Shown here: positions 580-20,083 of the stretch, in pieces
Position numbering within the stretch: the stretch's first letter is position 1
How the letters are laid out: each line of letters begins with the position of its first letter
Assembly: GCA_041659065.1 (NCBI GenBank)
Contig: JBAZYY010000001.1
Span: forward strand, 163,124 to 227,123
Source: Parcubacteria group bacterium
Lineage (GTDB): Bacteria; Patescibacteriota; Minisyncoccia; Moranbacterales; UBA11712
Length of the DNA stretch: 64,000 bases
Direction: 5' to 3'
Notes under the pieces: generated by a model
Told to the model about the DNA's origin: nothing
The model's input: only the letters and a program-made list of their open reading frames with translations
Databases searched by the model: none
Position numbers and translations under genes: made by a program

Positions 580-2934
580 CTATTTTAAATGTTTTGCTCT
601 TCCGACATTTTTCAAAAACTCGCCGTATTTTTTCAGATTGACTTTCGTTTTGAGCTTAATCGAATCAATCTCGGCGCCGAGCGAGAGTCCGTTTTTCGTT
701 TTGTGCTTCCTGATTTCATCCACGGCTTTGATCGCGCTCGCGAAATCCGAAATATCCGGAGATTTTTTCAGTTTGATTTCTTCCGGCCATTTTGAGATGT
801 GGATACTCTTTAATTTCTCGAAATGCTTAAAATAGGTCTGGAAAATCTCTTCCGTCACAAATGGCATGATGGGGGCATATAGTTTCACAATATTGAAGAA
901 CACTGTCGCAATTGTTTTTTCGCCCACTTTTTTCGATTTTACGTCCTCGCCAAAGAAACGATATTTCACGAACTCAACATAATAGTCTGCAAATTTAGAC
1001 CAGAAAAATCCGTCGATTTCTTCTTTAGCTTTGGCATAGGCATAATTTTCAAAAGCTTTGGTCGTTTTCGCGATAGTTTTATTGAGTTCATCAATGATCC
1101 ACGCGTCCGCTGGCTCAATCGTATCCGTGGATTTAAGTAATTCCGCCTTTTTCACATTCATTCCTATGAATCGGGCGGCGTTCCAGAGCTTAGTTGTGGT
1201 CCTCTGGCCCATTTTTATCTCTTCTTCGGAATAGTTAATATCCTGGCCTAAGCTGCTTCCCGCTGACCAAAAACGCAAAGCATCCGAACCGTATTTTTCC
1301 AATATTTCTTGCGGAACAACTGCGTTTCCAAGGCTTTTGGACATTTTTTTGCCTTGAGGATCAAGCACGTGACCTGAAATCATCACATTTTTCCATGGAA
1401 TCTTGTCGAAGTGATAATAGGAGCGCACGACCGTATAAAAAAGCCAAGTTGAAATTATATCATGGGCTTGCGGGCGAAGATTCATCGGAGTCATTCTTTG
1501 CGAAGTTTTCTCATCAAAAAACAGTCGCAGAGCTAGCTGCGGCGAAAGAGAACTTGTCGCCCAGGTATCCATTACATCTTTTTCTGGAGTGAATTTAGAG
1601 TTTCCGCACTTCGCGCATTTACCTTTTGGTTTGTCTGTGAGCGGATCAACTGGCAAATCTTTTTCTTCCGCCATCTTTACTTCTCCGCATTTTTCGCAAT
1701 ACCAGATCGGGAAAGGAACACCAAAAAATCTTTGGCGCGAGATTGCCCAGTCCCATCCCAAATTATTAATCCAATTTTCATAGCGCGCCCGCATAAAAGG
1801 CGGATGCCATTTTATTTTTTTTCCAAGGTCGATAAATTTCTTCTTTTTATCGAGAATTTTGATATACCATTGCAGAGAATTCAGGATTTCGACTTCATTT
1901 TTGCATCTTTCATGAATATTGACCGAGTGACTGATTTTTTTCTGGCCAATAAGTAGTTTCTTTTTTTCTAGATCATTAATAATATTTTGGCGCGCTTCCT
2001 TTATTGATAGCCCAGCGTATTTTTTCGCCTGCTTTGTCATTTTTCCGTATTTTTCAAGTGAAATCACGAGGGGCAGTTTGTATTCTTTGAACCATTCAAC
2101 GTCGGTCTTGTCGCCAAAAGTGCAGCACATCACCGCACCGGTCCCCTTTTCCGGATCGACTTTCTTGTCCGCAAGTATTTCAACTTTATTGCCAAATATC
2201 GGCACCTGCGCATATTTACCGATCAATTTTTTATATCGCTTGTCATTCGGATGGACAAAAACCGCCACACAGCTCGAAAGAAGTTCAGGACGGGTCGTGG
2301 CAATAATCAAATCTTTTTTATCTTCCAGCTTGAAAATAATGTCATTGAAAAGAGTCTCCACTTCTTTGTCTTCGAGCTCGGCTTGCGCGATAGCGGTTTG
2401 ACAATGCGGACACCAGACCACCGGCGCTTCCTGGCGATAGGCGTGGCCCTTTTCAAAAAGATCGATGAAATATTTTTGACTTATCTTTCGAGAATGATCA
2501 TCAATTGTAGAATAAGTTTTTGAGAAATCACAGGACATTCCAAGATTTTTCCAGTCTTTGCTAAATTCCGGAACTATTTCTTGGATAGTCTTGATGCAAA
2601 GCTTTATAAATTCATTCCGATCCATACGATTTGCTCTCACATTGGCTTTTTTTTCCACGAAACGCTCGGATGGAAGGCCGTTGTCATCCGTCCCAAAGGG
2701 ATAGAAGACATTAAATCCTCGCATCCTGAAAAAACGAGCTATGAAATCTTCGTGCGAATAAGAATAAGCATGACCAATATGCATGCGTCCACTAATATTC
2801 GGCGGCGGGGTGTCCACGGAAAAAACATTCCCTTTGGCTTTAGGGTTAAATTTATATATTTTCTCTTTTTCCCAAAATTCCCGCCATTTCGGCTCAACTT
2901 CTTGGGGATTGTAACGCTTTGAAATTTCTTTCAT
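580..2934 (-). CDS. valS: valyl-tRNA synthetase (class I aaRS, short form without C-terminal coiled coil)
   Basis: 784 aa. Contains PPPNISGRMHIGHAYSY (HIGH), KMSKSLGNAV (KMSKS) and DVMDTWATSSLSP, which are ValS-like editing/catalytic core signatures. Confidence 0.72.
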   Translation of the reverse strand: MKEISKRYNPQEVEPKWREFWEKEKIYKFNPKAKGNVFSVDTPPPNISGRMHIGHAYSYSHEDFIARFFRMRGFNVFYPFGTDDNGLPSERFVEKKANVRANRMDRNEFIKLCIKTIQEIVPEFSKDWKNLGMSCDFSKTYSTIDDHSRKISQKYFIDLFEKGHAYRQEAPVVWCPHCQTAIAQAELEDKEVETLFNDIIFKLEDKKDLIIATTRPELLSSCVAVFVHPNDKRYKKLIGKYAQVPIFGNKVEILADKKVDPEKGTGAVMCCTFGDKTDVEWFKEYKLPLVISLEKYGKMTKQAKKYAGLSIKEARQNIINDLEKKKLLIGQKKISHSVNIHERCKNEVEILNSLQWYIKILDKKKKFIDLGKKIKWHPPFMRARYENWINNLGWDWAISRQRFFGVPFPIWYCEKCGEVKMAEEKDLPVDPLTDKPKGKCAKCGNSKFTPEKDVMDTWATSSLSPQLALRLFFDEKTSQRMTPMNLRPQAHDIISTWLFYTVVRSYYHFDKIPWKNVMISGHVLDPQGKKMSKSLGNAVVPQEILEKYGSDALRFWSAGSSLGQDINYSEEEIKMGQRTTTKLWNAARFIGMNVKKAELLKSTDTIEPADAWIIDELNKTIAKTTKAFENYAYAKAKEEIDGFFWSKFADYYVEFVKYRFFGEDVKSKKVGEKTIATVFFNIVKLYAPIMPFVTEEIFQTYFKHFEKLKSIHISKWPEEIKLKKSPDISDFASAIKAVDEIRKHKTKNGLSLGAEIDSIKLKTKVNLKKYGEFLKNVGRAKHLK

Positions 2935-2988: not shown

Positions 2989-4986
2989 TTATTTTCTCAC
3001 CTTCACCCCTAACTTCTTCTCAAGCGCATGGATAATTTTATTCACTACGGTATCAATTTCGCTTGAGGTCAGCGTTTTACCATTAGATCCTATTTCTATA
3101 CGAATAGCCAAACTATCTTTATATTTATCAAACAGAGTTATATTTTTTATGAGTTCTCCGCCAGTTTTTTTAATTTCTTTTGTGATATCCGCGTATTTAG
3201 TATTTTCATCCACAAACATTGAGATGTCCCGATTCACGGTTGGAAATTTGCTGATTGGATGGTAACTTTTTTCAAAAGCATCGCTTGTTTTCATAACTTC
3301 TACGACATCTAGCTCGAAACATACAAGCCGATCTTTTAAGTCATACTTTCGAAGTATATTAGGATTTAATTCAGCTATATAGCCAACTACTGTATTTTTT
3401 AATTTTATAACTGCTGTCCGCGTTGGATGAACAAAATTTCCCGCAACTTTCGGCTGTGCGAATTCAACGTCTGGCAAATTGAGGCATCGAAAAAGTTCTT
3501 CAAGTTTTCCCTTGAGATCGTAATATGGATTATTTTTTTGATTGCGATTCATCAAAGCGCCAGCCAATTTCGTTTTTTCCCCTTTTTTAGCGGAAAAAAT
3601 GTCGCCTATTTCAAATATGGAAAAATCATTGAAATATTTCAAGTTAAGCGTCGCATTCCGGACAATTCCCGGAATGAGCGTGGTTCTCAAATATTGCTGG
3701 TCCAGACTCAAAGGATTTGATACTTCAATATGATCCGACTCATCTAAATTAAAGCTGGCTACTTCATCTTTTCCGTAAAAAGAATAATTCATCACCTCTG
3801 AAAATCCAAGTCCCGTTAAAATATTCTTAAGCTTATTTTCAAAAATCCTTTTTTCGTTTCGTGGCGGAGTTTTGAGTTCAACGCAAAGTGCTTGCTCCTT
3901 AATATTTTCATATCCATAAATACGGCCGATTTCCTCGATGAGATCTTCCTGAGTCTTAAGATCGATTCGGCGGGTTGGAGTTTCGCAGTTCAGAAATTTT
4001 CCAGATACTTTTACGATTAAACCCAGATTTTCCAAAATACTTTTCATTTTTGAAACCGGAATATTTTCGCCAAGCAGATTATTTACGTAATTTGTGTTCA
4101 AATTTATTTTCCACGGGCGTATTATTTTCGCATAAACATCAGTTAATGCGATCACCTCGACATTTTTGCCACCTAATTTCTTTATCAATTCAATCGCGCG
4201 CACAACTCCGATTTCTGCCAGATTCGGGTCAATTTCGCGTTCAAAGCGGTGCGAAGATTCAGTGTTGATGTTGTGGCGCATTCTTGTTTTTCGGATACTC
4301 GGAGCGTCGAAATTGGCCGATTCAAGGATTATCGAAGCAGTCTTATTATTAATGGCCGAGCCAATGCCGCCCATCACGCCAGCCAGTGCTAGGGCTTTTT
4401 CCGAGTCAGCAATTACTAAATCATTTGCAGTGAGTTTATAAACTTTTTCATCTAATAACTTTATTTCTTCATTCTTTTTGGCTTTCCTGACTATGATATT
4501 TCCCGCAGTTCTTTCTAAATCGAAAGCGTGTAGTGGTTGCCCGGTTTCCAGCATCACATAATTTGTAATATCAACAATGTTATTAATTGGCTTAACTCCA
4601 CTAGCCAGCAGCCGCTGCTGCATCCATTTTGGCGAAGCACCGACTTTTATATTTTCCAAAGCCGTTCCAATATATCGCGGGCAAAGATGCCTTTCGTTTA
4701 CTTTAATATTTAACTTCTGACTAAAGCTTAGCTTTAGTCGCTGGCTATAATCTAGTTCTGGAGATAACTTCCGACCTTCAATCGCGCAGATTTCCCTTGC
4801 CATCCCGATATGCGAAAGGGCATCGTGTCCTCGATTTGGCAATATCGCAAATTCAAGTTGAGTTTCGGTCCCTTCTTTTTTACTATCTTCAAACTCAAAA
4901 GCACGCATGCTAATTAGCTGCGCCAGCTGTTCTGGCGTTTTTTTTGTTTTAGATAGCTCTTTTAACCAATTGTAGCTATATTTCAT
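2989..4986 (-). CDS. pheT: phenylalanine--tRNA ligase beta subunit
   Basis: 665 aa starting MKYSYNWLKEL (typical PheT N-terminus), with a B3/4 and B5 domain-like middle and a C-terminal anticodon-binding-like region. It lies upstream of valS and downstream of pheS. Confidence 0.85.
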   Translation of the reverse strand: MKYSYNWLKELSKTKKTPEQLAQLISMRAFEFEDSKKEGTETQLEFAILPNRGHDALSHIGMAREICAIEGRKLSPELDYSQRLKLSFSQKLNIKVNERHLCPRYIGTALENIKVGASPKWMQQRLLASGVKPINNIVDITNYVMLETGQPLHAFDLERTAGNIIVRKAKKNEEIKLLDEKVYKLTANDLVIADSEKALALAGVMGGIGSAINNKTASIILESANFDAPSIRKTRMRHNINTESSHRFEREIDPNLAEIGVVRAIELIKKLGGKNVEVIALTDVYAKIIRPWKINLNTNYVNNLLGENIPVSKMKSILENLGLIVKVSGKFLNCETPTRRIDLKTQEDLIEEIGRIYGYENIKEQALCVELKTPPRNEKRIFENKLKNILTGLGFSEVMNYSFYGKDEVASFNLDESDHIEVSNPLSLDQQYLRTTLIPGIVRNATLNLKYFNDFSIFEIGDIFSAKKGEKTKLAGALMNRNQKNNPYYDLKGKLEELFRCLNLPDVEFAQPKVAGNFVHPTRTAVIKLKNTVVGYIAELNPNILRKYDLKDRLVCFELDVVEVMKTSDAFEKSYHPISKFPTVNRDISMFVDENTKYADITKEIKKTGGELIKNITLFDKYKDSLAIRIEIGSNGKTLTSSEIDTVVNKIIHALEKKLGVKVRK

Positions 4987-7446: not shown

Positions 7447-9918
7447 CTAATCTAATACATCTCGGATGTTAAGCGCAAGCCGGCTGCCTTTTTGGATTTC
7501 ACCGCTGATTATTTTTTTCACTATCCTATCTCCGATCCGGTCTTGAATAAACCGGTCAATTGATCTCGCGCCGAATTTTTTATCATAGCCTTTTTCCACG
7601 ATAAATTTAGGGAATTCCGGATTGAAAATGACGTCGATATTCTCAACATTTTTCAGATTTTCAGCATATTTAATCAGCAGATGCTTCGCAACTTCAATAA
7701 TCTCAGCCTGCGTGAGCGGCGAAAAAAATATTACTCCTTCAAAGCGATTCAGAAATTCCGGCTTGAATATCCCTTTTTCTATGACATAATTTATAACTTC
7801 TTCCCTGACTTTGTCCGGTTCGGTATCTTTTTCAATCGCAGCCTTAATAATATCCGAAGCCGCGTTAGAGGTGGCTATTATTATTTCATTTTTAAAACTG
7901 ATTTTTTTCCCGAAAGCATCGGTCAACCATCCTTCGTCAAGAACCTGTAAAAATAAACTGAGAATATCCGGGTGAGCCTTTTCAACCTCATCGAGGAGAA
8001 GAAGAGAATAGGGATTTTCCTTCACTTTGTTGGTTAGTTGGCCCGAAAATCCCGATTCCGGAGATCCCAAGAGGCGGTTGATCGATTCTTGCCTTTGAAA
8101 TTCACTCATATCTAGCCGGATCATCCTTTTTTCATCGCCAAAATATGCCTCCGCGAGAGCTTTGGCGGATTCGGTTTTTCCCACCCCGGTAGGACCCAGA
8201 AAGAGAAAGCTTCCCAGTGGTTTATTGGCGTTTGCCATGCCGGTCCGCGCCCTCCGGATAGTTTCCGCAATTTGCTTGATCGCGAATTCTTGGCCGATAA
8301 CTCTTTGGTGAAGAACTTTTTCCATGTCAATCAGTCTGTCTTTTTCACCTTCGGTTATCTCGCCAACTGGGATTTTATATTTTTTCGAAACAACTTCATC
8401 CACCGTTTCCGGAAGAATGTACTTTTCATTTGAAATATGGCTCCAATAAAGAAGGACTTCCTCCAAAAGGTCAAGCGCTTTTTCAGGAAAAGGCGAATCG
8501 CTGATATATTTTTCACAGGATCTCACAATTTCTCTGAGAGCTTGATAGGTGAATATTACTCCGTCTTTTTCGAGCTCTTCTAGCTTTCTAAAGAGCACGT
8601 CTAGAGTTTCTTTCGCGCTCATTTCTTCAATCTGTACTTTTTCGAAATATTTAAGCACCTGCTCATGGCTTTCAATGTCCCCGTGGTAATTTTCCGGCGT
8701 AGAAAGTCCTATAATTTGAAAGTTAGGGTAAGCTAGAAATTCAGACAGCACTGCGGATATATTTTCTCCGGCATTTTTGGGATCTTTCTTGAGATAGCGA
8801 TCTATATTTTCAATAACCAGGATAATATTTCCGGCATAAGTCGCTTCAAAAAAAACTTTTCTGAGGATTTGTTCGATTTCCTGTTGGTGCGTGACGCCGG
8901 ATACAACCTCCCCGATATTAAGCACCAGCACTCTCTTTGTGCCGACCGCTGAATATATGCGATGTTCCCTGATCCTTTTGGCCAGATGATGAGCTAGCGA
9001 CATTTTTCCCGTCCCGGCTTCTCCAATCAACAAAATACTGTTCTGTGACGGCCTTGTCAGGATTAATTCCAGCATCTCAATATCCTGATACCTGCCTTTC
9101 TCATCATCATCCTTATAATCAGTAAAGTCTCCTTTGGACAAATCAGAAGAATACTTATCCAAATTTACTGTGTATGCGAATGTCCAGTCTGCCCCGATTG
9201 GGCGTTTGGCAAATAAATTTTCCCTTGACCAAAATCTTTTTTTAAGCAGCCTTTTGTTTTCCCGCTCCGACTCCCACGCTATTATTTTTTGAAATTCTTC
9301 AGCAGTAACTTCGTAACGTTTAAGATTATCGGACGTTGGGCCGGTCTTTTCAATAAAAAGAATGCCGGGATCGTCTTTTTCAACTCCAATCCTGTTCCAG
9401 ACTCTCTTGAACCATTCCTTTTTTAGATACTGCTTGAAGCTATCCGCGCCTTCGTCTTCCTTTGAATGGAAAAAAGCTTTTATGGAGATAATAAAAAGAA
9501 TGGCCGAAACTGCCAAAAAAACTCCGGCCGTAGCCGACAAGTACAGCGTCTTTGAGTAATAGGCCACGGCCAAAACAATACTTACAATCAAGACAAATGG
9601 GAGCAGCAACCATATAACAAGAATAATTACTCCAAAAACTAAAACTAGAAGCACTGCAATCAATCCAAAAATTGCCGTGAAAAGCCTCACAATTGCTCCC
9701 AGAAAACGCGTAATGAGATTTTCAAAAGCCGATTGGAGAAAAAGTATCGGATGTAATCCCCGCTCACCCACTCTCGAAATATCCCTTTTCCATGGCGAAA
9801 AAAGAGTCAGAAGCATTCTTGAAACGCCAAAATACCACCAAAAAAATGCCAGATAGTTCCTCCAGATTTCAAAAAATTTTTTCGTACCCTTCGAATAGTG
9901 CCAAAAAAAGAAATTCAT
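7447..9918 (-). CDS. membrane-anchored ClpA/ClpB-family AAA+ ATPase (N-terminal polytopic TM domain, degenerate D1, canonical D2)
   Basis: 823 aa. The first ~150 aa are strongly hydrophobic with several predicted TM helices. D1 has LLIGEAGTGKMSLAHHLAKRI, an atypical Walker A. D2 has LFLGPTGVGKTESAKALAEAYF and LLLLDEVEKAHPDILSLFLQVLDEG plus a ClpB D2-small-like C-terminus. Confidence 0.7.
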   Translation of the reverse strand: MNFFFWHYSKGTKKFFEIWRNYLAFFWWYFGVSRMLLTLFSPWKRDISRVGERGLHPILFLQSAFENLITRFLGAIVRLFTAIFGLIAVLLVLVFGVIILVIWLLLPFVLIVSIVLAVAYYSKTLYLSATAGVFLAVSAILFIISIKAFFHSKEDEGADSFKQYLKKEWFKRVWNRIGVEKDDPGILFIEKTGPTSDNLKRYEVTAEEFQKIIAWESERENKRLLKKRFWSRENLFAKRPIGADWTFAYTVNLDKYSSDLSKGDFTDYKDDDEKGRYQDIEMLELILTRPSQNSILLIGEAGTGKMSLAHHLAKRIREHRIYSAVGTKRVLVLNIGEVVSGVTHQQEIEQILRKVFFEATYAGNIILVIENIDRYLKKDPKNAGENISAVLSEFLAYPNFQIIGLSTPENYHGDIESHEQVLKYFEKVQIEEMSAKETLDVLFRKLEELEKDGVIFTYQALREIVRSCEKYISDSPFPEKALDLLEEVLLYWSHISNEKYILPETVDEVVSKKYKIPVGEITEGEKDRLIDMEKVLHQRVIGQEFAIKQIAETIRRARTGMANANKPLGSFLFLGPTGVGKTESAKALAEAYFGDEKRMIRLDMSEFQRQESINRLLGSPESGFSGQLTNKVKENPYSLLLLDEVEKAHPDILSLFLQVLDEGWLTDAFGKKISFKNEIIIATSNAASDIIKAAIEKDTEPDKVREEVINYVIEKGIFKPEFLNRFEGVIFFSPLTQAEIIEVAKHLLIKYAENLKNVENIDVIFNPEFPKFIVEKGYDKKFGARSIDRFIQDRIGDRIVKKIISGEIQKGSRLALNIRDVLD

Positions 9919-10000
9919 TTTGTTTTTGCGTTCGTGCTTTTATATTAGCATAATCCAGCTAAACATAAAAACCGCATCTTAGGAAGCTGTTTTATTTTGA
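9900..10000. repeat. left copy of a diverged ~100-bp direct repeat bounding the accessory island (includes the first codons and upstream region of the ClpB-like gene)
   Basis: gccaaaaaaagaaattcattttgtttttgcg...ttagcataa...gctgtttt is repeated, with indels, at 18975-19080. Confidence 0.55.
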
Positions 10001-10169
10001 AAATTTTCTATTTCCCAACATCCGATGCTGAGAAGCGGCTAATTTTTACTTATAAATGGCTTCCAACTTTTTCGTCTGCTCCGAAAGCGCATCAAGTTTA
10101 GCGAATATTGATTTTTGCTTTGATACGGGTTTTCCTAGTATTGAATATTGGGAGGGGTTAATTACCCTG

Positions 10170-10218
10170 ATTCCTAAAGTTCGAAATTAGGATTGGTTTT
10201 CCTAACATTAAATGTTAG
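10170..10218. repeat. hairpin repeat pair (H1-like ttcctaaagttcgaaattagga plus H2 cctaacattaaatgttag)
   Basis: Inverted repeats are visible directly. Both families recur at eight intergenic sites in 10.1-14.1 kb. Confidence 0.6.
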
Positions 10219-10273
10219 AAACGGTTAGAGGGGCCAGAGGTGAATGCCCAAAAATCAAAACTCCTTTTATGGT

Positions 10274-11449
10274 TTATCTTTTCTCTAAAATATCATTAAG
10301 CGGTTTATATATATACCAGTACCCATCATGACGAGGCGGTGCATTTTTTAATACTGACAAGCCCTTCCTCGCATGATCTTTCATTATATCAATATTAGTT
10401 TTATTTATGCGCAACCCTAGTAATTCAAGCGACCGTCCAAGTCTATCGAGCTCATAATTGAAATCAGATTCTGCAGTTCTCGAGTGTAAAAGTTTTTCAA
10501 GATTACCTATTATTTCCTCAAATCTTTTTTCCCAATAAGTAGTTTCTTTTTCATAAAATATATTAATAAACTCATCCCTTAAATTTGTAATGATTTTTTC
10601 TCGCATTGCAAACTGTTCAACACTAAGGGGCACATCAGATTTGACATTACTATACTTGCCAAAGTCAAGGTTCTCAATCCGATTCTTTCCATGAAATATC
10701 GCATATGCGATGTGATTCGCAATAATATGCCTATCAAAATTATTTCCACCGATAATTGAGAACGCAACATTAAACTTTTTATCCCTATCTCCTTTTTTAA
10801 CATTTTCTAATGCATAAAATATTCCTTCGAATGATTTGTTTATTGTTGCTCTAGAACTAATGTACTCTGTAACATATAAAAAACCATTTTCGATTTTATT
10901 TTCTATTAACAAATTACTCACCACACTTTTCACGCCAGAACTGTCAAGGTTGTGATGCTTATGATCATGACCAATATCGAGTGAAACAAGTTCTGCTAAT
11001 TTTTCATTTTTTGTTTCATAGATTTTATTTATCGCCTTATGTATTATTTCCGCAGGCAATCGACCACTGCTATCTTCTGAAAAAACTACATCATAAGCAT
11101 GCGCATTAACTGCATCACGCATTTGTGGTACCATTTTTTCAAATGCACTCATCATTATATCACTGAGAAAATTAATCTCTGCATTTGGTGTTTTCCAATT
11201 TTCATGAAAGATTCTCGCCTCGGTTTCAGCCAATTCAATGGCAGTAACCTTGGGAAGGTTGAAAATTTTAAACAGAATACCCCTTTTCTTGTTTTTTAAT
11301 TTTGCCAATTCTTCCCATTCAGACCAAGATTCTAAAACTTCACGTCTTATAAAACCATTTTCAAGATTAACGAAATTAGCACGCTCGTCGCTTGGCAAAT
11401 CCTCAACTTTTTTATATTCAGCATTAAATGGATTAAATTTTTCTGACAT
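10274..11449 (-). CDS. hypothetical protein (island cassette gene, 391 aa)
   Basis: Long ORF whose ATG lies 28 nt downstream of the X promoter module. No family recognised. Contains a His-rich patch (SLDIGHDHKHHNLD). Confidence 0.55.
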   Translation of the reverse strand: MSEKFNPFNAEYKKVEDLPSDERANFVNLENGFIRREVLESWSEWEELAKLKNKKRGILFKIFNLPKVTAIELAETEARIFHENWKTPNAEINFLSDIMMSAFEKMVPQMRDAVNAHAYDVVFSEDSSGRLPAEIIHKAINKIYETKNEKLAELVSLDIGHDHKHHNLDSSGVKSVVSNLLIENKIENGFLYVTEYISSRATINKSFEGIFYALENVKKGDRDKKFNVAFSIIGGNNFDRHIIANHIAYAIFHGKNRIENLDFGKYSNVKSDVPLSVEQFAMREKIITNLRDEFINIFYEKETTYWEKRFEEIIGNLEKLLHSRTAESDFNYELDRLGRSLELLGLRINKTNIDIMKDHARKGLSVLKNAPPRHDGYWYIYKPLNDILEKR

Positions 11450-11476
11450 ACCCTCGTATTTTCGATTAATTATTTT

Positions 11477-11509
11477 CCCCTGCCGGAATTACGTAATCAG
11501 TTACGTAAC
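11477..11509 (-). promoter_or_regulatory. conserved promoter/operator module X: tandem TTACGTAA palindromes then CCGGC(A/G)GGGG, ~25-28 nt upstream of the cassette start codon
   Basis: The minus strand reads TTACGTAACTGATTACGTAATTCCGGCAGGGGAAAATAATTA. This fits a -35-like TTACGT, a 17-18 nt GC-rich spacer and a -10-like A/T hexamer, leaving a very short leader. Confidence 0.5.
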
Positions 11510-11517
11510 AAATTTTA

Positions 11518-11547
11518 TTCCTAAAGTCGAACTTTAGGAACGGTCAG
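11518..11547. repeat. H1 hairpin repeat ttcctaaagtcgaactttaggaa followed by cggtcag
   Basis: Perfect 10-bp arms (ttcctaaagt / actttaggaa) around cga. Identical copies lie at 13166-13188 and 13349-13371. Confidence 0.65.
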
Positions 11548-11944
11548 TTTTTCTTTCGAGAGACGGCGGATCGAGCGGGCGAAAGCTTGCTGATTGATTT
11601 TTCGCCATTCAGCCTTGATCAACCTTAGATTCCTATAGTACTGCCGGGGATCCCGGGAAAACCCCAAAGCGACGCCTCCCATAAACGCTAGCAATATTTT
11701 CTTTTTCACCGACCCTATCCTGTACATAAATATATTTTAGCATCAATATACGGCCGTGTCTAAAAACTGAATTGGAGCTGGAGAGTATAAATGTGGGTAT
11801 AAATTATAAATATTGAGCAAGGAAATATTCAACAGAATATAGCTTTAAGATACGGCCGTGGGTAAATGCTGGGTTGGGGAAAAAAGATGAAGGAGGTCGA
11901 ATGAAGTGCGAGCGAGAAAGTATTGCTGCTATTTTTCAATCCAT

Positions 11945-11980
11945 CCCCCGCCGGAATTACGTAATTGGTTACGTAATTAT
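11945..11980 (-). promoter_or_regulatory. X module copy (cccccgccggaattacgtaattggttacgtaattat)
   Basis: Same tandem TTACGTAA motif. No ORF starts at the usual 25-28 nt, so this cassette is probably degenerate. Confidence 0.4.
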
Positions 11981-11985
11981 CTTTA

Positions 11986-12010
11986 CCCTAACATTCAATG
12001 TTGAGTTGGG
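11986..12010. repeat. H2 hairpin repeat (ccctaacattcaatgttgagttggg) immediately 3' of the stop codon at 12011
   Basis: The arms aacatt / aatgtt form a palindrome. The same family occurs at 10201-10218 and 13556-13656. Confidence 0.55.
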
Positions 12011-12562
12011 TTATTTTTTTAGCTTCTTTTTTTCTTCAACTTTCGGCCAGCTGGCGCCCCGAAGCTTAATTTGATCCTGTCTTTTCGCAACCCATTGTCT
12101 GTGCGCGTCAACATTATTCTCTTCCAGACTTGGATGCCTCCAAACTTGTTCTGGAGGAGGTATTTGCCCTTTTTTTATCAGCACATTTTCTTGATATTTC
12201 GCTTGTTGCTTTTTTCTTCTGCCTCCAATACTGAAATATCTTTTGGTTTCTTTTCTCCTTTTTGCTCGCTTGGCTATTCCCTGAAGGATTATCTCCTCGG
12301 GATTTTCAATATTGGATTCACTATCAACATATCTAAAAGTATGAGGATTATCTTCCGGCTCAGCAACCTTTCTAATATTTGGTTTCCCGCTGTCTTTTTT
12401 GAATTGCCGTTTTTTTACAGGAACCGTATCGCCTATTTTTTCCCGAACGCCCAGAGGCCCTCCAGATTCGACTCGCAAATCATCTTCAGTTTGGTGCGCC
12501 GATTCTCCGAAATTATTTTCCTTTAATTGATCCACGAGATCCGGTCTTTCGAGTTTTGGCAT
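12011..12562 (-). CDS. hypothetical highly basic protein (183 aa, K/R/E-rich, likely nucleic-acid-binding)
   Basis: The ORF's ATG lies 24 nt downstream of the X module at 12586-12621. Composition is low-complexity basic. Confidence 0.55.
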   Translation of the reverse strand: MPKLERPDLVDQLKENNFGESAHQTEDDLRVESGGPLGVREKIGDTVPVKKRQFKKDSGKPNIRKVAEPEDNPHTFRYVDSESNIENPEEIILQGIAKRAKRRKETKRYFSIGGRRKKQQAKYQENVLIKKGQIPPPEQVWRHPSLEENNVDAHRQWVAKRQDQIKLRGASWPKVEEKKKLKK

Positions 12563-12585
12563 ATATTATTCTTTATTTATTATCT

Positions 12586-12621
12586 CCCCCGCCGGAATTA
12601 CGCAATTAGTTGCGTAATTAT
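12586..12621 (-). promoter_or_regulatory. X module copy (cccccgccggaattacgcaattagttgcgtaattat)
   Basis: Minus strand reads TTGCGT, then 17 nt AATTCCGGCGGGGGAGA, then TAATAA, then 14 nt, then ATG. This is the best sigma70-like arrangement of the four copies. Confidence 0.5.
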
Positions 12622-12624
12622 TCT

Positions 12625-12645
12625 CGCTAAGGTTCAACCTTAGCG
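12625..12645. repeat. hairpin cgctaaggttcaaccttagcg (perfect 10-bp arms) overlapping the stop codon of the upstream cassette gene
   Basis: Revcomp of cgctaaggtt is aaccttagcg. The TAA of ORF 12640..13155 lies inside the 3' arm. Confidence 0.6.
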
Positions 12646-13155
12646 AAGCTCTAGTTTCTCAATTATTTTTTTAAATGCCCCATATCCTCTGTATGACTCA
12701 CCTGATATATATTCTCCACTTTCATCTTTATATTTTTTTATTTCGCCATTTTCTTTAATTTCCCTCAACTCTGAAATAATTTCCCAAAGCAAATTAACAA
12801 AATCTTTACCCAGATTCCGGTTATTAATGGCAAATTCAATAAAAACTTCGTCGCTGATTACCATTTTAAATGTTTCGAAGGATATTCCACTTATTCTTTC
12901 CTTATCAATTAATCTTTTATTATTATTAAACTCTAATAACAATGCCTTCTTGAGAATTTTATATTTATTTCCCCTTCTATAATTCTCTGCTTTTTCATTT
13001 AACTTAAATGCAACAAAAACACCAAGAAAAGTAGCGATTAAAACAAAAATGAATTGAGTAATATCTATTATTGTAATCAAGTTTAACTGATATAACAAAA
13101 TAACCAATAACAACACTAATAATATAAGGTATATAATAATTTTTTTGTTGCTCAT
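12640..13155 (-). CDS. hypothetical membrane protein (two N-terminal TM helices plus a soluble domain, 171 aa)
   Basis: Hydrophobic N-terminus IIIYLILLVLLLVILLY...FIFVLIATFLGVFVAF. No family recognised. Confidence 0.55.
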   Translation of the reverse strand: MSNKKIIIYLILLVLLLVILLYQLNLITIIDITQFIFVLIATFLGVFVAFKLNEKAENYRRGNKYKILKKALLLEFNNNKRLIDKERISGISFETFKMVISDEVFIEFAINNRNLGKDFVNLLWEIISELREIKENGEIKKYKDESGEYISGESYRGYGAFKKIIEKLELR

Positions 13156-13165
13156 AAATTTTTGA

Positions 13166-13188
13166 TTCCTAAAGTCGAACTTTAGGAA
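13166..13188. repeat. H1 hairpin repeat (ttcctaaagtcgaactttaggaa)
   Basis: Exact copy of the 11518-11540 element, 8 nt upstream of the start codon at 13155. Confidence 0.65.
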
Positions 13189-13279
13189 CGGTTAAGAGAA
13201 ATTGCAGTCTTGTCAAAAGCAAAGACTGGATTAGTATCCATTTCCTGTGGCGCTTTTTTGTCTTCGCGATCAAATGCCA
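13169..13279 (-). CDS. possible 36-aa basic peptide MAFDREAKKRHRKWILIQSLLLTRLQFLLTVPKVRL (cassette-positioned small ORF)
   Basis: The ATG lies 28 nt after the X module at 13308-13343, like the other cassette genes. The last 8 codons and the stop are supplied by the H1 hairpin. Confidence 0.3.
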   Translation of the reverse strand, partial: WHLIAKTKKRHRKWILIQSLLLTRLQFLLTVPKVRL

Positions 13280-13307
13280 TAAGATTAGAGATTTTTCTAA
13301 ATTATTA

Positions 13308-13343
13308 TCCCCCGCCGGAAATACGTATTTAAATACGTATTTA
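13308..13343 (-). promoter_or_regulatory. X module variant (cccccgccggaaatacgtatttaaatacgtatttat)
   Basis: Tandem ATACGTAT palindromes replace TTACGTAA. The CCGGCGGGGG and A/T-rich -10 region are conserved. Confidence 0.45.
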
Positions 13344-13348
13344 TTTTT

Positions 13349-13371
13349 ATTCCTAAAGTTCGACTTTAGGA
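13349..13371. repeat. H1 hairpin repeat (ttcctaaagttcgactttaggaa)
   Basis: Third H1 copy, followed by cggttaac. Confidence 0.6.
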
Positions 13372-13555
13372 ACGGTTAACTATTTTTTTTTGGCTTTGGC
13401 TTTCAGTTTTTTGAGGTGCGTGGCCGAATCACGGCAGGTGCAGTTTTTCGCGTGGCCACCGTGCCACTTTATTTTCTCCTCAAGAGTTGCATTTTTGGGC
13501 ATCTTGTTCTTCAAATGCCAGGTTTTGTTGATTTTCATCTTGTTTTATCGCTATT

Positions 13556-13656
13556 CTAACATTGAATGTGGGGTCGGGTTACCCTTGGACGGAAGTTTTG
13601 ACGAAAGCTCGGCTTTCGTCAGGTTTACCCCAACATTGAATGTTGGGTTGGGTTAT
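13556..13656. repeat. composite H2 element (two ctaacattgaatgtgggg-type palindromes flanking the hairpin gacgaaagctcggctttcgtc), a MITE-like insertion
   Basis: ctaacattgaatgtgggg ... gacgaaagc-tcg-gctttcgtc ... ccccaacattgaatgttgggttggg. The element supplies the last 22 codons and the stop of the truncated ATPase ORF. Confidence 0.5.
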
Positions 13657-13944
13657 TTCGATATTTTTATAACCGCTTGGGTCCCATTTATTATTTTTAA
13701 AAGCATAATTTTTACCATCTGTCATGATTTCAATACTCGGATTGTTATTTTGCCCAAGAGTTGATCTTTCTAATATATAAGTAGGATCGTTCCTCTCTAG
13801 AGATCTAAAGATTGCTGATAATGTAGTCTTTCCGCGACCATTCTCGCCAAATAGAACCGACATTTTTTTCAATTTCGTATCTCCTAGAGATTCATATTTT
13901 TCAAATCTTCCGACATGGAAGATTTTTATTACTTTTTCAATCAT
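13579..13944 (-). pseudogene. N-terminal fragment (~100 aa) of an ABC/SMC-type defence-associated ATPase (AAA_15/AAA_21-like), truncated by the H2 repeat element
   Basis: IFHVGRFEKYESL...MSVLFGENGRGKTTLSAIFRSL is a RecF/OLD/PrrC-type Walker A N-terminus; such proteins are >350 aa. Here the frame runs into repeat-derived sequence and stops after 121 aa. Confidence 0.55.
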
Positions 13945-14049
13945 AATAAATTATTTTCCTCCTTAATCCTAAATTTTCCAGATTTGACTAATTTTATACT
14001 ATTATAATTTTTCGGTTCCTTAAATTCGAATTGCCAAGTGGAATATTTT

Positions 14050-14072
14050 ATTCCTTAAGTTTAACTTTAAGA
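14050..14072. repeat. imperfect H1-like hairpin (ttccttaagtttaactttaagaa then cggttaatg)
   Basis: Degenerate copy of H1 at the 3' end of the DpnI-like operon. Confidence 0.4.
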
Positions 14073-14101
14073 ACGGTTAATGATTCTTCGTTAACATCGA
14101 C

Positions 14102-14257
14102 CTATTCCTCTTCGCGATCTTCTGATAAATCCTCAAGAAACCACTCTCTACCGCAAATACAGCTTCCCTGATATGAATACTGATATTGACCACCAATAAG
14201 TTTTATTGCAAGTTTATTTCCACATTTGCACTTTATCAACATCTGCTGATTATCCAT
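14102..14257 (-). CDS. possible 51-aa zinc-ribbon protein (MDNQQMLIKCKCGNKLAIKLIGGQYQYSYQGSCICGREWFLEDLSEDREEE)
   Basis: Two CxCG pairs. The ATG lies 5 nt after the stop of the 153-aa gene. Too short for the ORF track. Confidence 0.35.
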   Translation of the reverse strand: MDNQQMLIKCKCGNKLAIKLIGGQYQYSYQGSCICGREWFLEDLSEDREEE

Positions 14258-14261
14258 AAAT

Positions 14262-14723
14262 TTATTTGTATTTTTTTATCATCTCCAAGCACTCCTCATA
14301 TGCATCTGCCTTGCCGCCAATAAATTCATTTAGACCAAATTCTTCGATATTTTCACTCTCCCAAAATTCCTCTTTCCACTCCTTTCGATAATTTTTTGCT
14401 AATTCTGCGATATGAGCTTCGAGCGATTCTCCAGTAATTTTTTCCAAAAATCCTTTTGCCATCAGTCGTGTCGTAACTTCATCCAAATTTTGCAAATTTT
14501 CCCACAATTCAAACGTCTGATATTTGTCATCGCTTGCAATCATTTTCCATTCATCCGGTTCGACTTCGACAAAGTCATCGTCTTCTTCAGTGTATTCTTG
14601 GCACATGACCAGAAACGGGAAATAAAAATCTTTATGCGAGTCCAGATATTTCAGTATTTTTATTGCGATTTCTCTTGAAATTTTCATAAATTGACCAGAA
14701 ATTATCTTTTTGCTTCTGATCAA
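14262..14723 (-). CDS. acidic 153-aa protein encoded immediately downstream of the DpnI-like gene; possible DpnD-like partner
   Basis: E/D-rich. The gap to the DpnI-like gene is 24 nt. The pneumococcal DpnI cassette (dpnC-dpnD) has a similar small second gene of unknown function; I cannot verify sequence similarity. Confidence 0.45.
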   Translation of the reverse strand: MIRSKKIISGQFMKISREIAIKILKYLDSHKDFYFPFLVMCQEYTEEDDDFVEVEPDEWKMIASDDKYQTFELWENLQNLDEVTTRLMAKGFLEKITGESLEAHIAELAKNYRKEWKEEFWESENIEEFGLNEFIGGKADAYEECLEMIKKYK

Positions 14724-16203: not shown

Positions 16204-16404
16204 TTTTTACTCCGATAATCGCGGACGGTCATAGAAGGGATTACTTATTTATCCTACATAATTGCCTTTTATAAAGCAAATATCATCAGTTATCCACAAT
16301 TTAGTTGAAATATTTTTCGAATTATGCAAGTATTATAAGTACCAAGACCTGTATTCCGAACTATCACCGGATGGTGGTGTGGCTGGGACAACCAGTCTAG
16401 GAAC

Positions 16405-16440
16405 GTGGTCGGAGATAGCCCTTCGGGGCTGTTTTTTGTT
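16405..16440 (+). terminator. plus-strand rho-independent terminator-like hairpin (agccc-ttcg-gggct then gttttttg)
   Basis: A GC stem followed by a T-run on the plus strand only. It lies between divergent/convergent minus-strand genes. Confidence 0.4.
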
Positions 16441-17065
16441 ATTTGAAAGGCCATTCATCTTCAATATGCTTCTTTATTATACTTTTGTATACGGCGCGAT
16501 CATTTTTTGTATTGTCATAGCTTCTTCGAATGCTTCCCGCAGTCATATCAGCCATTTGTATGAGGACATTGCTTTTTGAATTTACAAGACGGCAATTTTT
16601 GATGATTTTCGTTTGTTTGGAATTAAGTTGCTTTCTCAAATACGTGATAAAACTTTTTCGAAACACTCTGTCACCGCTTCCGTCAATTTTTATCGATGCA
16701 TTGAAAATCGTGGAATTGTTATATTTGAGAAGTGTCTTGATTATATAGCTGTAAAAAGAATCTTTGCTGTTTTTCAATTCGTCGCTTCTGATTATCTTCT
16801 TATCGACGACGAGAGACCTGATTCTAAACTCGAATTTGTTCACTGTTTGGAGAAATTTTTCTCTCACATCTTTTCGGGATTTGTTGAATTTGAATTCAAC
16901 CTTATCCGAAAACTTCAAGTTTCTTCTCAATTCTTTTATCGCAACTGCGGCTTTTTCCGCTTCCAGATTATCATCAAAAATAACTGCACTTATCACAAAA
17001 AAGTCAGTTGAGCCCCTTTCGAATTTGAAGCCGGCGTCGCCGGAGTCATCAATGAAAACCAGCAT
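16439..17065 (-). CDS. DUF3800 family protein
   Basis: N-terminal MLVFIDDSGD and a later IQMADMTAGSIRRSY motif are characteristic of DUF3800. Confidence 0.65.
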   Translation of the reverse strand: MLVFIDDSGDAGFKFERGSTDFFVISAVIFDDNLEAEKAAVAIKELRRNLKFSDKVEFKFNKSRKDVREKFLQTVNKFEFRIRSLVVDKKIIRSDELKNSKDSFYSYIIKTLLKYNNSTIFNASIKIDGSGDRVFRKSFITYLRKQLNSKQTKIIKNCRLVNSKSNVLIQMADMTAGSIRRSYDNTKNDRAVYKSIIKKHIEDEWPFK

Positions 17066-18974: not shown

Positions 18975-19080
18975 GCCAAAAAAAAGAAATTCATTTTGTT
19001 TTTATTTGCGGTGTTGCTGGTATTTTAGCATAAAAAAGACAAACTTAAAAACAGCCTTTTAATGAAAGACTGCTTTTACG
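18975..19080. repeat. right copy of the island-bounding direct repeat (contains a pseudo-start ATGAATTTCTTTTTTTTGGC duplicating the first codons of the ClpB-like gene)
   Basis: gccaaaaaaaagaaattcattttgtttttatttgcgg...ttagcataaaaaagacaaacttaaaaacagcc... aligns with 9900-10000. Confidence 0.55.
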
Positions 19081-19154: not shown

Positions 19155-19204
19155 TGGCGGGTAGGGAGGGATTCGAACCCCCGTAGCCCGAAGGCGCCAG
19201 ATTT
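19155..19204 (-). pseudogene. tRNA-Tyr 3' fragment (anticodon-loop position ~36 to the 3' end, with encoded CCA)
   Basis: Minus strand reads AAATCTGGCGCCTTCGGGCTACGGGGGTTCGAATCCCTCCCTACCCGCCA. It is identical to the 3' part of the intact tRNA-Tyr apart from the discriminator base. Confidence 0.7.
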
Positions 19205-19258
19205 ATGTCGCCTCTTGCGGCACCCCGCCAATGGCGGTGGCAGTCTTAGTTAAATTTG

Positions 19259-19341
19259 TGGGTAGGGAGGGATTCGAACCCCCGTAGCCCGAAGGCGCCA
19301 GATTTACAGTCTGGTACAATTGGCCGCTCTGTCACCTACCC
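19259..19341 (-). tRNA. tRNA-Tyr (anticodon GTA), long variable arm, no encoded CCA
   Basis: The tRNA reads GGGTAGGTGACAGAGCGGCCAATTGTACCAGACTGTAAATCTGGCGCCTTCGGGCTACGGGGGTTCGAATCCCTCCCTACCCA. Acceptor arms are GGGTAGG / CCTACCC. Anticodon stem CCAGA / TCTGG carries loop CTGTAAA. Confidence 0.85.
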
Positions 19342-19342
19342 G

Positions 19343-19594
19343 TTACTTTATTCTTTTAATCAATTTTTTAAACGCGTCACCACCTTTGTATGATTTTATC
19401 CGTAATTCTCTTTTGTAAGCATCATTCTTAGTATTATATTCTTCCGTATAAATAATTTTCCAGGGACGAGCACTCTTAGTCGATCTTACTAATCCTCGGT
19501 TATGTCTTTCCAGTCTATTATTTAAGTCCTGCGTACGGCCAATATAATATTTATTAGATTTTTCTATAGATTCTAAAATATATACTCTATACAT
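19343..19594 (-). CDS. GIY-YIG nuclease family protein (UPF0213/YhbQ-like, 83 aa), copy 1
   Basis: YRVYILES...YYIGRTQDLNNRLERHN...PWKIIYTEEY...KRELRIKS matches the small GIY-YIG family signature. The stop codon lies 1 nt from the tRNA-Tyr 5' end. Confidence 0.75.
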   Translation of the reverse strand: MYRVYILESIEKSNKYYIGRTQDLNNRLERHNRGLVRSTKSARPWKIIYTEEYNTKNDAYKRELRIKSYKGGDAFKKLIKRIK

Positions 19595-19693
19595 AACATA
19601 ATAGCATGAACATTCTGATTTATGCCGCCCCTAGCGGCACCCCGCCAACGGCGGTGGCAGTCTGGTACAATTGGCCGCTCTGTCACCTACCCG

Positions 19694-19945
19694 TTACTTT
19701 ATTCTTTTAATCAATTTTTTAAACGCGTCACCACCTTTGTATGATTTTATCCGTAATTCTCTTTTGTAAGCATCATTCTTAGTATTATATTCTTCCGTAT
19801 AAATAATTTTCCAGGGACGAGCACTCTTAGTCGATCTTACTAATCCTCGGTTATGTCTTTCCAGTCTATTATTTAAGTCCTGCGTACGGCCAATATAATA
19901 TTTATTAGATTTTTCTATAGATTCTAAAATATATACTCTATACAT
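19694..19945 (-). CDS. GIY-YIG nuclease family protein, copy 2 (identical)
   Basis: The ORF has 100% identical translation to copy 1. Confidence 0.7.
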   Translation of the reverse strand: MYRVYILESIEKSNKYYIGRTQDLNNRLERHNRGLVRSTKSARPWKIIYTEEYNTKNDAYKRELRIKSYKGGDAFKKLIKRIK

Positions 19946-20083
19946 AACATAATAGCATGAACATTCTGATTTATGCCGCCCCTAGCGGCACCCCGCCAAC
20001 GGCGGTGGCAGTCTGGTACAATTGGCCGCTCTGTCACCTACCCGTTTTAAAATAGTACTATTCGCTCCGCGTCATCAACCGGG

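Follow-up and report, generated by a model that had tools for sequence, protein, structure and literature searches.

What are the short hairpins that stand between the genes of a small defence island in a Moranbacterales genome, and how did they come to be there? The locus lies in a 64-kb stretch of Parcubacteria group bacterium DNA (assembly GCA_041659065.1, contig JBAZYY010000001.1, positions 163,124 to 227,123), which we call the window and number from its first letter; all genes of the island are on the minus strand, and the polarity of the hairpins is given in the sense of these genes. An earlier note, made from the sequence of this stretch, described two families of hairpin repeats that delimit units of promoter, open reading frame (ORF) and hairpin, and proposed a cassette system different from integrons. 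Our analysis favours another answer, to which we give a probability of about 0.72: the hairpins are repetitive extragenic palindromic (REP)-type elements, cognate to Y1 (HUH/tyrosine) transposases of the IS200 superfamily that resemble REP-associated tyrosine transposases (RAYTs), with an atypical hairpin, and they are not integron-like cassettes. Candidatus Moranbacteria and related genomes of the Candidate Phyla Radiation (CPR) hold several such pairs of gene and hairpin.

Pattern searches found 11-12 short hairpin elements, all confined to positions 10134-14079, and none in the other 60 kb of the window. A single polarity is kept throughout, and almost every copy is at the stop codon of a gene. 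The two families of the earlier note are confirmed as repeats, but they belong to one structural class that holds at least four sequence families, H1 to H4, with a 10-bp stem and a 3-nt loop; on the gene-sense strand the 5' foot is usually TAACC, and the unit reads 5'-TAACC(N)-hairpin; nine window copies have this foot. A repeat finder placed H1, H2 and H3 in a common register (family D1), TTYCTAA-stem-loop-stem-TTAGRA-NGGTTA, where GGTTA is given on the plus strand. H1, TTCCTAAAGT-N3-ACTTTAGGAA, is exact at 11518-11540, 13166-13188 and 13350-13372 and degenerate at 10171-10193 (3 mismatches) and 14051-14073 (2 mismatches), which makes 5 matches against 0.01 expected. H2 has copies at 10202, 11988, 13556 and 13630 (8 strand-matches against 0.05 expected), and H3 has a perfect 10-bp stem at 12624-12646. 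Two members had been overlooked: H4, TGACGAAAGC-TCG-GCTTTCGTCA, a perfect hairpin at 13599-13621 in the middle of the supposed H2 composite, and an extra decayed H2-like copy at 10134-10160 (family D1). The repeats are thus real, structured and far above chance, and the coordinates first given for them were correct to within 1-2 nt.

The evidence for their identity comes from the relatives of this bacterium. A scan of one genome per GTDB species found exact H1 at 28 loci, most of them in metagenome-assembled genomes (MAGs) of Candidatus Moranbacteria (Moraniibacteriota), and one of these genomes, RIFOXYB1_FULL_43_19, has 11 exact copies on 6 contigs. The 3-nt loop of H1 varies freely between copies in relatives, and the same genomes carry H2, H3 and other hairpins of 10 bp and 3 nt (H3 is found, for example, at L008:7212). 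Hairpins also occur singly in core-genome intergenic sites of relatives (at locus L018, next to rplU) and inside conserved genes. As to the mobility that the earlier note had read into the repeats, the hairpins are dispersed over many contigs in relatives; within the window they are confined to 4 kb.

At locus L018 (MFSH01000002.1) five H1 copies surround and enter a 221-aa ORF (864..1529), one of them 9 nt past its stop and another 16 nt before its ATG. This ORF matches Pfam Y1_Tnp (IS200-like transposase) with 32.5 bits against a cutoff of 23, and its sole NCBIfam match is REP-associated tyrosine transposase (36 bits, below the cutoff of that model). A homologue at L013, 47% identical, is bracketed by a different hairpin, CTACCCTAGAGC-TGA-GCTCTAGGGTAG. 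When metagenomes were scanned with the L018 and L013 proteins, at least 599 pattern matches were obtained, at least 454 of which were confirmed to encode a relative, and the best 80 of these at least 454 loci (L034-L113) were examined. The RAYT-like proteins are ~220 aa long, and 24 family members share NH[YF]H (HUH), Y-x3-N and other motifs without variation. Of the 80 loci, 77 have a hairpin with a perfect stem of 8 bp or more at most 100 nt upstream, inside the gene or at most 120 nt downstream, and at 39 of the 80 the upstream and downstream hairpins have a common 8-mer; the gene ends have 5.7 hairpins per kb as opposed to 0.43 per kb in the background. The sequence of the hairpin differs from gene to gene, with H1 flanking the genes of L034-L036, H2 those of L038-L041 and H3 that of L037, while H4 only resembles the hairpin beside the RAYT-like gene of L042, GACAAGAGC-CCG-GCTCTTGTC. 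At 15 of 54 loci a 12-mer from the cognate hairpin turns up again at a distance of more than 300 nt from the gene, as against 0 of 54 in a cross-locus control. These loci show a cognate association between gene and hairpin and a lineage-wide dispersal of the hairpins. The "MITE-like behaviour" (MITE, miniature inverted-repeat transposable element) of the earlier note holds in so far as the repeats behave like small, non-autonomous mobile DNA, being dispersed and tied to a gene of a transposase family; a strict, DDE-derived MITE was rejected, as there are no terminal inverted repeats with target-site duplication.

Some further observations on these genes and hairpins may be recorded here. In 60 of the 80 CPR RAYT-like genes the gene's own cognate hairpin lies in frame in the coding sequence, often as an inverted double (REPIN-like), and its site is a hypervariable stretch ~10-25 codons upstream of NH[YF]H (e.g. 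L018:1309-1331, L049:912-949 and L053:3167-3218). In two CPR genomes (L006:766 and L015:3490) H1 occupies one and the same site, close to the 3' end of a gene that is, by flanking similarity, apparently orthologous in the two, and this could be an old or conserved intragenic copy. Finally, the H1 palindrome is extended to GAGTTTCCTAAAGT-N3-ACTTTAGGAAACTC in MAGs of Planctomycetota, Flavobacteriales and Bacteroidia (L007, L009, L029, L030), i.e. in lineages unrelated to CPR.

Is it the folded strand or the duplex that matters in these elements? As single-stranded DNA (ssDNA) the intact window copies fold with -7.8 to -10.2 kcal/mol (z -3.8 to -5.9), whereas decayed copies fold no better than shuffles. 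An alignment of 22 copies, 11 of them from the window, has two-sided changes at 10 of 10 stem pairs, compensatory between families, and 93.6% paired cells compared with 69.6% in shuffles and 30-51% in slid controls. An outward TAACC is found within 10 nt of 17 of the 57 perfect hairpins in Moranbacteria DNA, where chance would give ~0.3, and in the opposite orientation at 2. The hairpins are an ssDNA-foldable class under structural selection.

Selection on structure might also be expected of regulatory palindromes, and on such a reading the hairpins would be immobile 3'-end stabilisers or attenuators, or dimer operators, copied along with genes, and the link to RAYT-like genes would be one of autoregulation only. 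They are sited where such elements might be sought, between a stop codon and the upstream region of the next gene, their conserved arms and free 3-nt spacer are like those of a dimer operator, and one copy is terminator-like in a lenient scan; moreover, REPs of E. coli stabilise the upstream mRNA. However, no T-run follows the hairpin on the gene-sense strand, conventional terminators are present beside hairpins, the terminator scan gave 5 sites against 3.1 +/- 1.9 in shuffles, and decayed copies exist. That all 10 stem pairs have compensatory changes speaks for a nucleic acid that is folded rather than for a duplex operator. Copying or insertion, and not vertical descent, is needed to account for one and the same hairpin beside unrelated genes of several genomes, with its loop in either orientation, and also within coding sequences, in frame. 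We therefore consider it very unlikely that the hairpins are regulatory and nothing else. Several narrower identities were tried and rejected. Intrinsic terminators do not fit the AT-rich stems, the A-rich 3' flank on the sense strand, a scan near background in which a single H1 scored, and the canonical GC-rich T-run terminators that stand beside H1 in relatives. No Rfam family was found for the hairpins or for the X motif described below at E <= 1. A DNA uptake sequence was dismissed, as H1 half-sites number 14 against 6.4 expected, with all exact ones inside hairpins and no enrichment outside, and so were tRNA-derived att repeats: the likeness to a T-arm is superficial, and the real tRNA-Tyr fragments at 19.1-20.0 kb are unrelated. 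In virus contigs H1 had 0 matches; the X motif had 3, most likely by chance, of which the one at L001 is in GC-rich, apparently coding sequence.

How do the copies of the window stand to its genes? Read in gene direction, the array (all on the minus strand) opens with a degenerate H1 at 14051..14079, between ORF 14102..14257 and the fragment of an ATPase gene; its TAACC foot is GGTTA on the plus strand (14075-14079), it belongs to repeat families D1 and D2, and it folds no better than shuffles. Then comes a composite of an H2 copy at 13630..13655 (CCCAACATT-G-AATGTTGGG, TAACC foot at 13650-13655), the perfect H4 (13599..13621) at its centre, and a degenerate H2 with TAACC foot at 13556..13581 (D1, D4), 17 nt upstream of the ATG of ORF 13380..13538; the composite folds with -20.4 kcal/mol (z -5.45). 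An H1 with the loop TCG on the plus strand and a TAACC foot occupies 13350..13378, 2 nt past the stop of ORF 13380..13538 (-7.8 kcal/mol, z -4.66). The next H1 (13166..13194, loop CGA, TAACC foot, z -4.28) includes the stop of ORF 13182..13280, with ATG 13155 following after 10 nt, and H3, TCGCTAAGGT-TCA-ACCTTAGCGA (12624..12646, -10.2 kcal/mol, z -5.92), holds the stop of ORF 12640..13155. An imperfect H2 with a TAACC foot follows at 11988..12013, weakly folded (z -1.16), and the TAA of its TAACC is the stop of ORF 12011..12562. The last exact H1 (11518..11546, loop CGA, TGACC foot, z -3.82) gives TVPKVRL and a stop to ORF 11521..11727. The array ends between gene 10274..11449 and a Clp-like gene with a mosaic of three elements at 10134..10228 (D1, D4), in which an H2 at 10202-10218 (TAACC foot to 10228) is joined by the degenerate H1 at 10171-10193 and by the degenerate H2-like copy at 10134-10160, again with a TAACC foot.

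The ORF ends between 10.1 and 14.1 kb bear out the claim that the hairpins lie at or overlap stop codons. In gene sense TAACCGTTCCTAAAGT...ACTTTAGG holds one stop per frame (TAA, TAA, TAG), and since the CTAA/TTAG stems contain stops in three frames, the elements terminate or replace the 3' ends of the upstream ORFs. The stops of ORFs 12640..13155 and 13182..13280 are in the 5' arm of a hairpin, and that of ORF 13380..13538 is 2 nt before TAACC. ORF 11521..11727 reads through H1 and ends in LTVPKVRL, an ending that is found, as the earlier note had it, also in a second small ORF (13169..13273), and unrelated ORFs that adjoin H1 in another genome end in VPKVRL. The gap between stop and element is ~22 nt for ORF 14102..14257 and ~46 nt for gene 10274..11449. 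Stops supplied by hairpins lead to short chimeric ORFs in annotations.

The clearest trace of an event at one of the elements is the ATPase gene. ORF 13579..13944 (minus strand, 121 aa) is the N-terminal fragment of a ~760-aa defence ATPase of AAA_13/PDC-S06 type: it matches Pfam AAA_13 and positions 1-97 of the 784-position PADLOC profile PDC-S06, residues 1-97 are homologous, and codons 98-121 with the stop come from the hairpin cluster, i.e. ~24 codons where 22 had been counted before. An exhaustive HMMER search returned 1341 relatives, most full-length ones ~760 aa, aligned to the query from residue 1 to ~88-101, which confirms the expectation that the intact protein is longer than 350 aa. 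In tblastn searches with 6 relatives homology was found at 13944-13654 only, the rest of the window being unmatched, and its end at 13654 falls inside the TAACC foot (13650-13655, plus strand) of the H2 copy. The remaining ~660 codons were not found in the window by tblastn; the next 420 nt beyond the fragment are taken up by a 52-aa ORF, a unit of X and H1, and a 32-aa ORF. The earlier note held that the element had inserted into the gene and truncated it. The gene is indeed truncated and the cluster marks its exact end, but as ~660 codons are absent from the window the element is a deletion or rearrangement junction and not a simple insertion. The 10-mers that flank the composite 13556-13655 match at 8 of 10 positions, a borderline result (null 0.003 per test, ~15 tests) for a target-site duplication; the gene does not resume beyond the composite, and the flanking 10-mers of the other elements match at 1-7 of 10 only. 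An assembly error had been considered; however, window 12349-14513 recurs in a JGI contig assembled from a different sample, with one single-nucleotide polymorphism (SNP), at 13430, and since this contig reproduces the ATPase structure, the structure is not an assembly artefact. No intact ATPase orthologue in a similar context was found among the closest relatives: the closest (P0003) is frameshifted, lies in a restriction-modification context and has no hairpin at the split, and another (P0002) is truncated by unrelated sequence, hairpins not being involved.

What is the second motif that accompanies the hairpins? X consists of CCCCCGCCGGAA and a TTACGTAA-type palindrome, and has four copies, at 11475, 11943, 12584 and 13307, each directly beside a hairpin; no further copy was found in the 64 kb. 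The four copies share the minus strand. The copy at 13307..13342 (CCCCCGCCGGAA with the palindrome AAATACGTATTT-AAATACGTATTT; families D3, D5) lies 27 nt upstream of ATG 13280, the copy at 12584..12619, with the compensated palindrome AATTACGCAA-TTAG-TTGCGTAATT (D3), 22 nt upstream of ATG 12562, and the copy at 11475..11508 (CCCCTGCCGGAA with TTACGTAA-TCAG-TTACGTAA) 26 nt upstream of ATG 11449, so that in three of the four an ATG follows 22-27 nt past X; from the copy at 11943..11978 the nearest gene start is more than ~210 nt away. X recurs in other Moranbacteria loci (twice in L012 and L024, once in L019, L021 and L028). Its 3' edge, GGGGGA(T/A)AATAAT, could include a -10 element. The claim that each cassette has its own X promoter did not stand: there are four copies only, at 4 of ~8 gene boundaries, a sigma-70 scan gave 16 sites against 15.7 expected, with a single X scoring (9 of 12), and in L012 one X is directed at a convergent terminator behind which there is no gene. 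On these grounds, together with the ~210 nt without a gene behind the copy at 11943, X was rejected as a sigma-70 promoter; it was also rejected as a hairpin cognate to a RAYT, its palindrome being absent beside all 80 RAYT-like genes. X is probably a promoter/operator-type partner motif in a mosaic like the bacterial interspersed mosaic elements (BIMEs), an assignment that we regard as putative.

Two observations concern the surroundings of X and its counterparts. The 210-nt spacer 11728-11942, between the X at 11943 and ORF 11521..11727, has a duplicated segment of ~47 nt (11729-11775 and 11831-11877, 72% identical) that carries the palindrome TACGGCCGTG. The two sigma-70-like sites that score best in the region, TTGAAT-18-TATAAT and TAGACA-17-TAAAAT, are also in this spacer, and ORF 11521..11727 is provided with sigma-70-like sites of its own (11832-11803 and 11762-11734); the spacer may represent a promoter/operator in duplicate or a gene for a small RNA. 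In L008 a different palindromic motif, ACTATCTTGAC-N4-GTCAAGCATTTT, is repeated (2490-2560 and 3305-3385) in the X-like slot after hairpins, with a good TTGACA-N16-TATAGT on the gene strand. As this motif takes the hairpin-adjacent slot, mosaics of hairpin and promoter-like motif appear to be general in the lineage.

Does the joining of X and hairpin, then, point to cassettes after all? One could propose that stem-loop and X modules of ~80-90 nt are recombination joints, similar to those of phages or integrons, through which accessory and defence genes are shuffled, either homologously or by an HUH enzyme. An element is present at nearly every gene boundary between 10.1 and 14.1 kb, in one orientation; the ~80-nt X-hairpin composite at 13300-13378 is 80-91% identical to L012, L021 and L028, three loci in two other Moranbacteria genomes whose neighbouring genes are unrelated, and two composite copies within the window are 79% identical over 89 nt (D5). 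The slot 5' of X is filled by hairpins from three different families, the cut in the ATPase coincides exactly with an element, the island is low in GC, holds defence genes and is bracketed by a direct repeat of ~70 nt, and short-read contigs end at X and H1. The promoter-early/stem-loop cassettes (PeSLs) of T4-type phages (PMC2839356, PMC4122927) show that such an architecture can drive modular shuffling (PMC2839356). Against this, no cargo gene was found with the same modules in a different context, gene order is identical in two independent assemblies, a recombinase is absent in and near the island, single hairpins occupy core-genome positions and even lie in frame inside genes of relatives, identical stretches between copies are at most ~27 nt, and the occurrence of X at half of the boundaries and the L012 copy that faces no gene fit poorly. 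We thus regard recombination joints as unlikely, and the "different cassette system" of the earlier note found no support: the hairpins occur singly in core-genome intergenic sites and are cognate to RAYT-like Y1 genes. It is distinctly unlikely, too, that the RAYT-cognate hairpins and X together form the joints of a cassette system, driven by HUH enzymes or by repeat recombination, which assembles and reshuffles CPR defence genes. If true, this would explain the ~100-fold density of the hairpins, their uniform polarity, the interchangeable families beside X and the ATPase cut at the TAACC foot, and the system would be a functional analogue of integrons or phage PeSLs built on the recognition of single-strand hairpins.

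The resemblance to integrons was also considered in its literal form, namely that the hairpins are attC sites of a divergent integron. The genes form a same-orientation array with elements at the 3' ends of the ORFs, and the CTAAC...GTTAG of H2 resembles inverse-core and core sites. The statement that the hairpins lack GTTRRRY-like cores thus holds for H1, H3 and H4, which have no AAC/GTT cores, but not strictly for H2, whose ends are CTAAC/GTTAG and therefore contain AAC...GTT. However, no tyrosine recombinase was found from 0.6 to 30.7 kb, and the elements are perfect 23-nt hairpins rather than imperfect R''-L''/L'-R' structures of 57-141 nt with extrahelical bases. They are, furthermore, dispersed in genomes and associated with a Y1 HUH gene. 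An attC identity is so improbable that it can be taken as effectively refuted.

If the hairpins are REP-type elements, how might they have accumulated here? By analogy with IS200/IS605 transposases and the E. coli RAYT, we suppose that a RAYT-like enzyme, encoded elsewhere in the source genome, would bind the hairpin on ssDNA, probably on the lagging-strand template, and would cut and rejoin next to the hairpin, TAACC serving it for guidance or as the motif to be cleaved; this foot would take the role that GTAG has in classical REPs. Copies of four families have piled up with a single polarity between the accessory genes of the 9-kb low-GC defence island, and many of them are joined to X in BIME-like mosaics. 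The GC skew of the plus strand is negative throughout, which makes the strand with the TAACC-hairpin leading-strand sequence, and the uniform polarity would be consistent with targeting of the lagging-strand template. Once in place, the hairpins would probably act as 3' stem-loops of mRNA. They also serve as rearrangement breakpoints, one such event having removed the ~660 ATPase codons exactly at a TAACC foot.

Several points weigh against the REP-type reading. No RAYT-like gene was found within the 64-kb window. All 11-12 copies lie in 4 kb, a local density ~100 times that of relatives (where no genome has more than 11 exact H1 copies, for an assumed size of ~1 Mb, typical of CPR genomes), and with none in the other 60 kb simple REP dispersal is no explanation. 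The scores of the RAYT-like proteins with the NCBIfam model REP_Tyr_transpos (NF047646), 23-36 bits, are far below its cutoff of 80. The hairpins are perfect and AT-rich, neither GC-footed nor bulged, and their foot is TAACC, the GT[AG]G of REPs being absent. The loops of H1 are CGA or TCG while the orientation of the TAACC foot is fixed, so the mobile unit is not cleanly defined. A hairpin of one family or another nearly always stands directly 5' of X in sense direction, a partnership that REP-type elements do not explain. In the covariation analysis, moreover, the copies from outside the window had been picked as perfect hairpins, which is a selection bias.

What kind of region received the elements? 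They occupy the left half of a low-GC stretch at ~9.95-19.0 kb (GC 0.34-0.37 against 0.40-0.46) that interrupts housekeeping genes, with PheRS, another tRNA synthetase, adenosine deaminase and the Clp-like ATPase on one side and tRNA-Tyr, tRNA-Thr, EF-Ts and S2 on the other. Its genes include a DpnI-like methyl-directed restriction enzyme, a DUF3800 protein and the N-terminus of the PDC-S06/AAA_13 ATPase, the rest being small ORFs without assigned function, for which no Pfam match was found at E <= 5. Between 0.6 and 30.7 kb, where every sizeable ORF was scanned against Pfam, the scans found housekeeping and defence genes only and no integrase, transposase or recombinase, in agreement with the earlier statement that no integrase is present. 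Every contig with an exact match to the Clp-like, 183-aa and 171-aa proteins either equals the window or departs from it by one SNP, and no alternative arrangement of the island was found in these contigs. The 391-aa protein has a single distant homologue, with neither hairpin nor X nearby; no homologues were found for the 68-aa ORF, which may be a truncated PaaX-like CPR protein.

Other features of the island and its right-hand border may be mentioned. The imperfect ~70-nt direct repeat (9900-9970 and 18975-19045) that brackets the low-GC island has a perfect 26-nt core, CAAAAAAAGAAATTCATTTTGTTTTT, and includes both the start codon of the Clp-like gene 7447..9918 and the sequence upstream of it; the repeat may have been left by the insertion of the island. 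The Rfam motif DUF3800-IX RNA is present at 16346-16414 on the plus strand (50.1 bits, gathering score 36.8), ~25 nt past the 3' end of the DUF3800 gene 16439..17065 and on the strand opposite to it (the gene being on the minus strand). The tRNA-Tyr gene (19258-19341, minus strand) has a partial 3' self-copy at ~19160-19206 and is followed by two identical tandem 83-aa GIY-YIG genes, 19343..19594 and 19694..19945 (Pfam GIY-YIG, 57.7 bits), after each of which there is a fragment that matches the 5' part of tRNA-Tyr. The motif GCACCCCGCCAA(T/C)GGCGGTGGCAGTCT stands at ~17610, 19220, 19640 and 19990. The region 19160-20045 looks like a repeated insertion or duplication of a GIY-YIG element at a tRNA gene.

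Taken as REP-type elements, the hairpins of the window would be a repeat class typical of the lineage and no new cassette machinery. CPR/Patescibacteria genomes are usually seen as streamlined and repeat-poor, and REP/RAYT systems are described mainly in Proteobacteria, Cyanobacteria and Bacteroidetes; full-text searches of the literature found no REP/RAYT description for CPR, Patescibacteria or Moranbacteria. Our results suggest that RAYT-like genes form a widespread family in the CPR, each with its own perfect-hairpin partner, and if the specificity between enzyme and hairpin holds, the many natural pairs would form a panel for the reading of ssDNA hairpins by HUH enzymes. In more practical terms, the hairpins mark rearrangement breakpoints in defence islands and break short-read assemblies.

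How do these elements compare with known systems? They have in common with integrons a same-orientation gene array and a palindromic element after each gene. However, there is no IntI, attI or Pc here, and the elements are far shorter, perfect, dispersed genome-wide and associated with another enzyme family. The composite hairpin-X architecture at four gene boundaries is similar to that of PeSLs, in which repeated modules of stem-loop and putative promoter flank small non-essential genes in a hyperplastic region with a potential for shuffling and deletion. The differences are that this is a bacterial chromosome and not a phage, that the stem-loop is a transposase-cognate hairpin and not a demonstrated terminator, and that X has no sigma-70 consensus; moreover, neither shuffling nor mini-circles were seen, and the available assemblies have no alternative orders.

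To IS200/IS605 elements and palindrome-associated transposable elements (PATEs) the likeness lies in the enzyme superfamily (Pfam Y1_Tnp), the absence of target-site duplications, a polarity consistent with lagging-strand targeting and, presumably, the recognition of a subterminal ssDNA hairpin with a short target or cleavage motif next to it. Unlike these, the present elements form no tnpA/tnpB unit with distinct left and right ends but isolated hairpin units of 23-29 nt, and the gene is single and bracketed like a RAYT gene, not multi-copy. The BIMEs of E. coli are likewise intergenic mosaics of different REP types and other motifs, and 10134-10228, 13556-13655 and the hairpin-X composites are of this kind, although X (TTACGTAA-type palindrome with CCGGCGGGGGA) has no known counterpart.

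The closest parallel is that to REPs and RAYTs, which, together with REPtrons and REPINs, were reportedly studied by Nunvar in 2010, Bertels and Rainey in 2011 and Ton-Hoang in 2012. Both are short extragenic palindromic hairpins with many copies per lineage and an oriented conserved motif at the foot, in both a Y1 HUH gene is bracketed by its own cognate hairpin and several pairs coexist, and in both there are in-frame hairpins inside the transposase gene, with HUH and Y-x3-N conserved. The tnpA_REP genes are each flanked by their own REP family with other copies dispersed, and in-frame internal REPs have been documented (Quentin et al. 2018, PMC6006769). A classical REP has GT[AG]G at its 5' foot and a GC-rich, often bulged basal stem, and "atypical secondary structures" were described for subclasses 2.6 and 3 (PMC6006769). 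In subclass 2.4 the internal REP is in frame between HUH and Y (PMC6006769), whereas the internal hairpin here is upstream of HUH. By its motifs (NH[YF]H, FQ, Y[IV]xxN) the present protein resembles subclass 2.1, which was reported to be without REPs (PMC6006769). The copy number is low, in genomes of ~1 Mb, and the host is a CPR/Patescibacteria lineage. The system described here therefore departs from described REPs in its perfect AT-rich hairpins of 10 bp and 3 nt, its TAACC foot, an internal copy upstream of HUH and a subclass 2.1-like protein.

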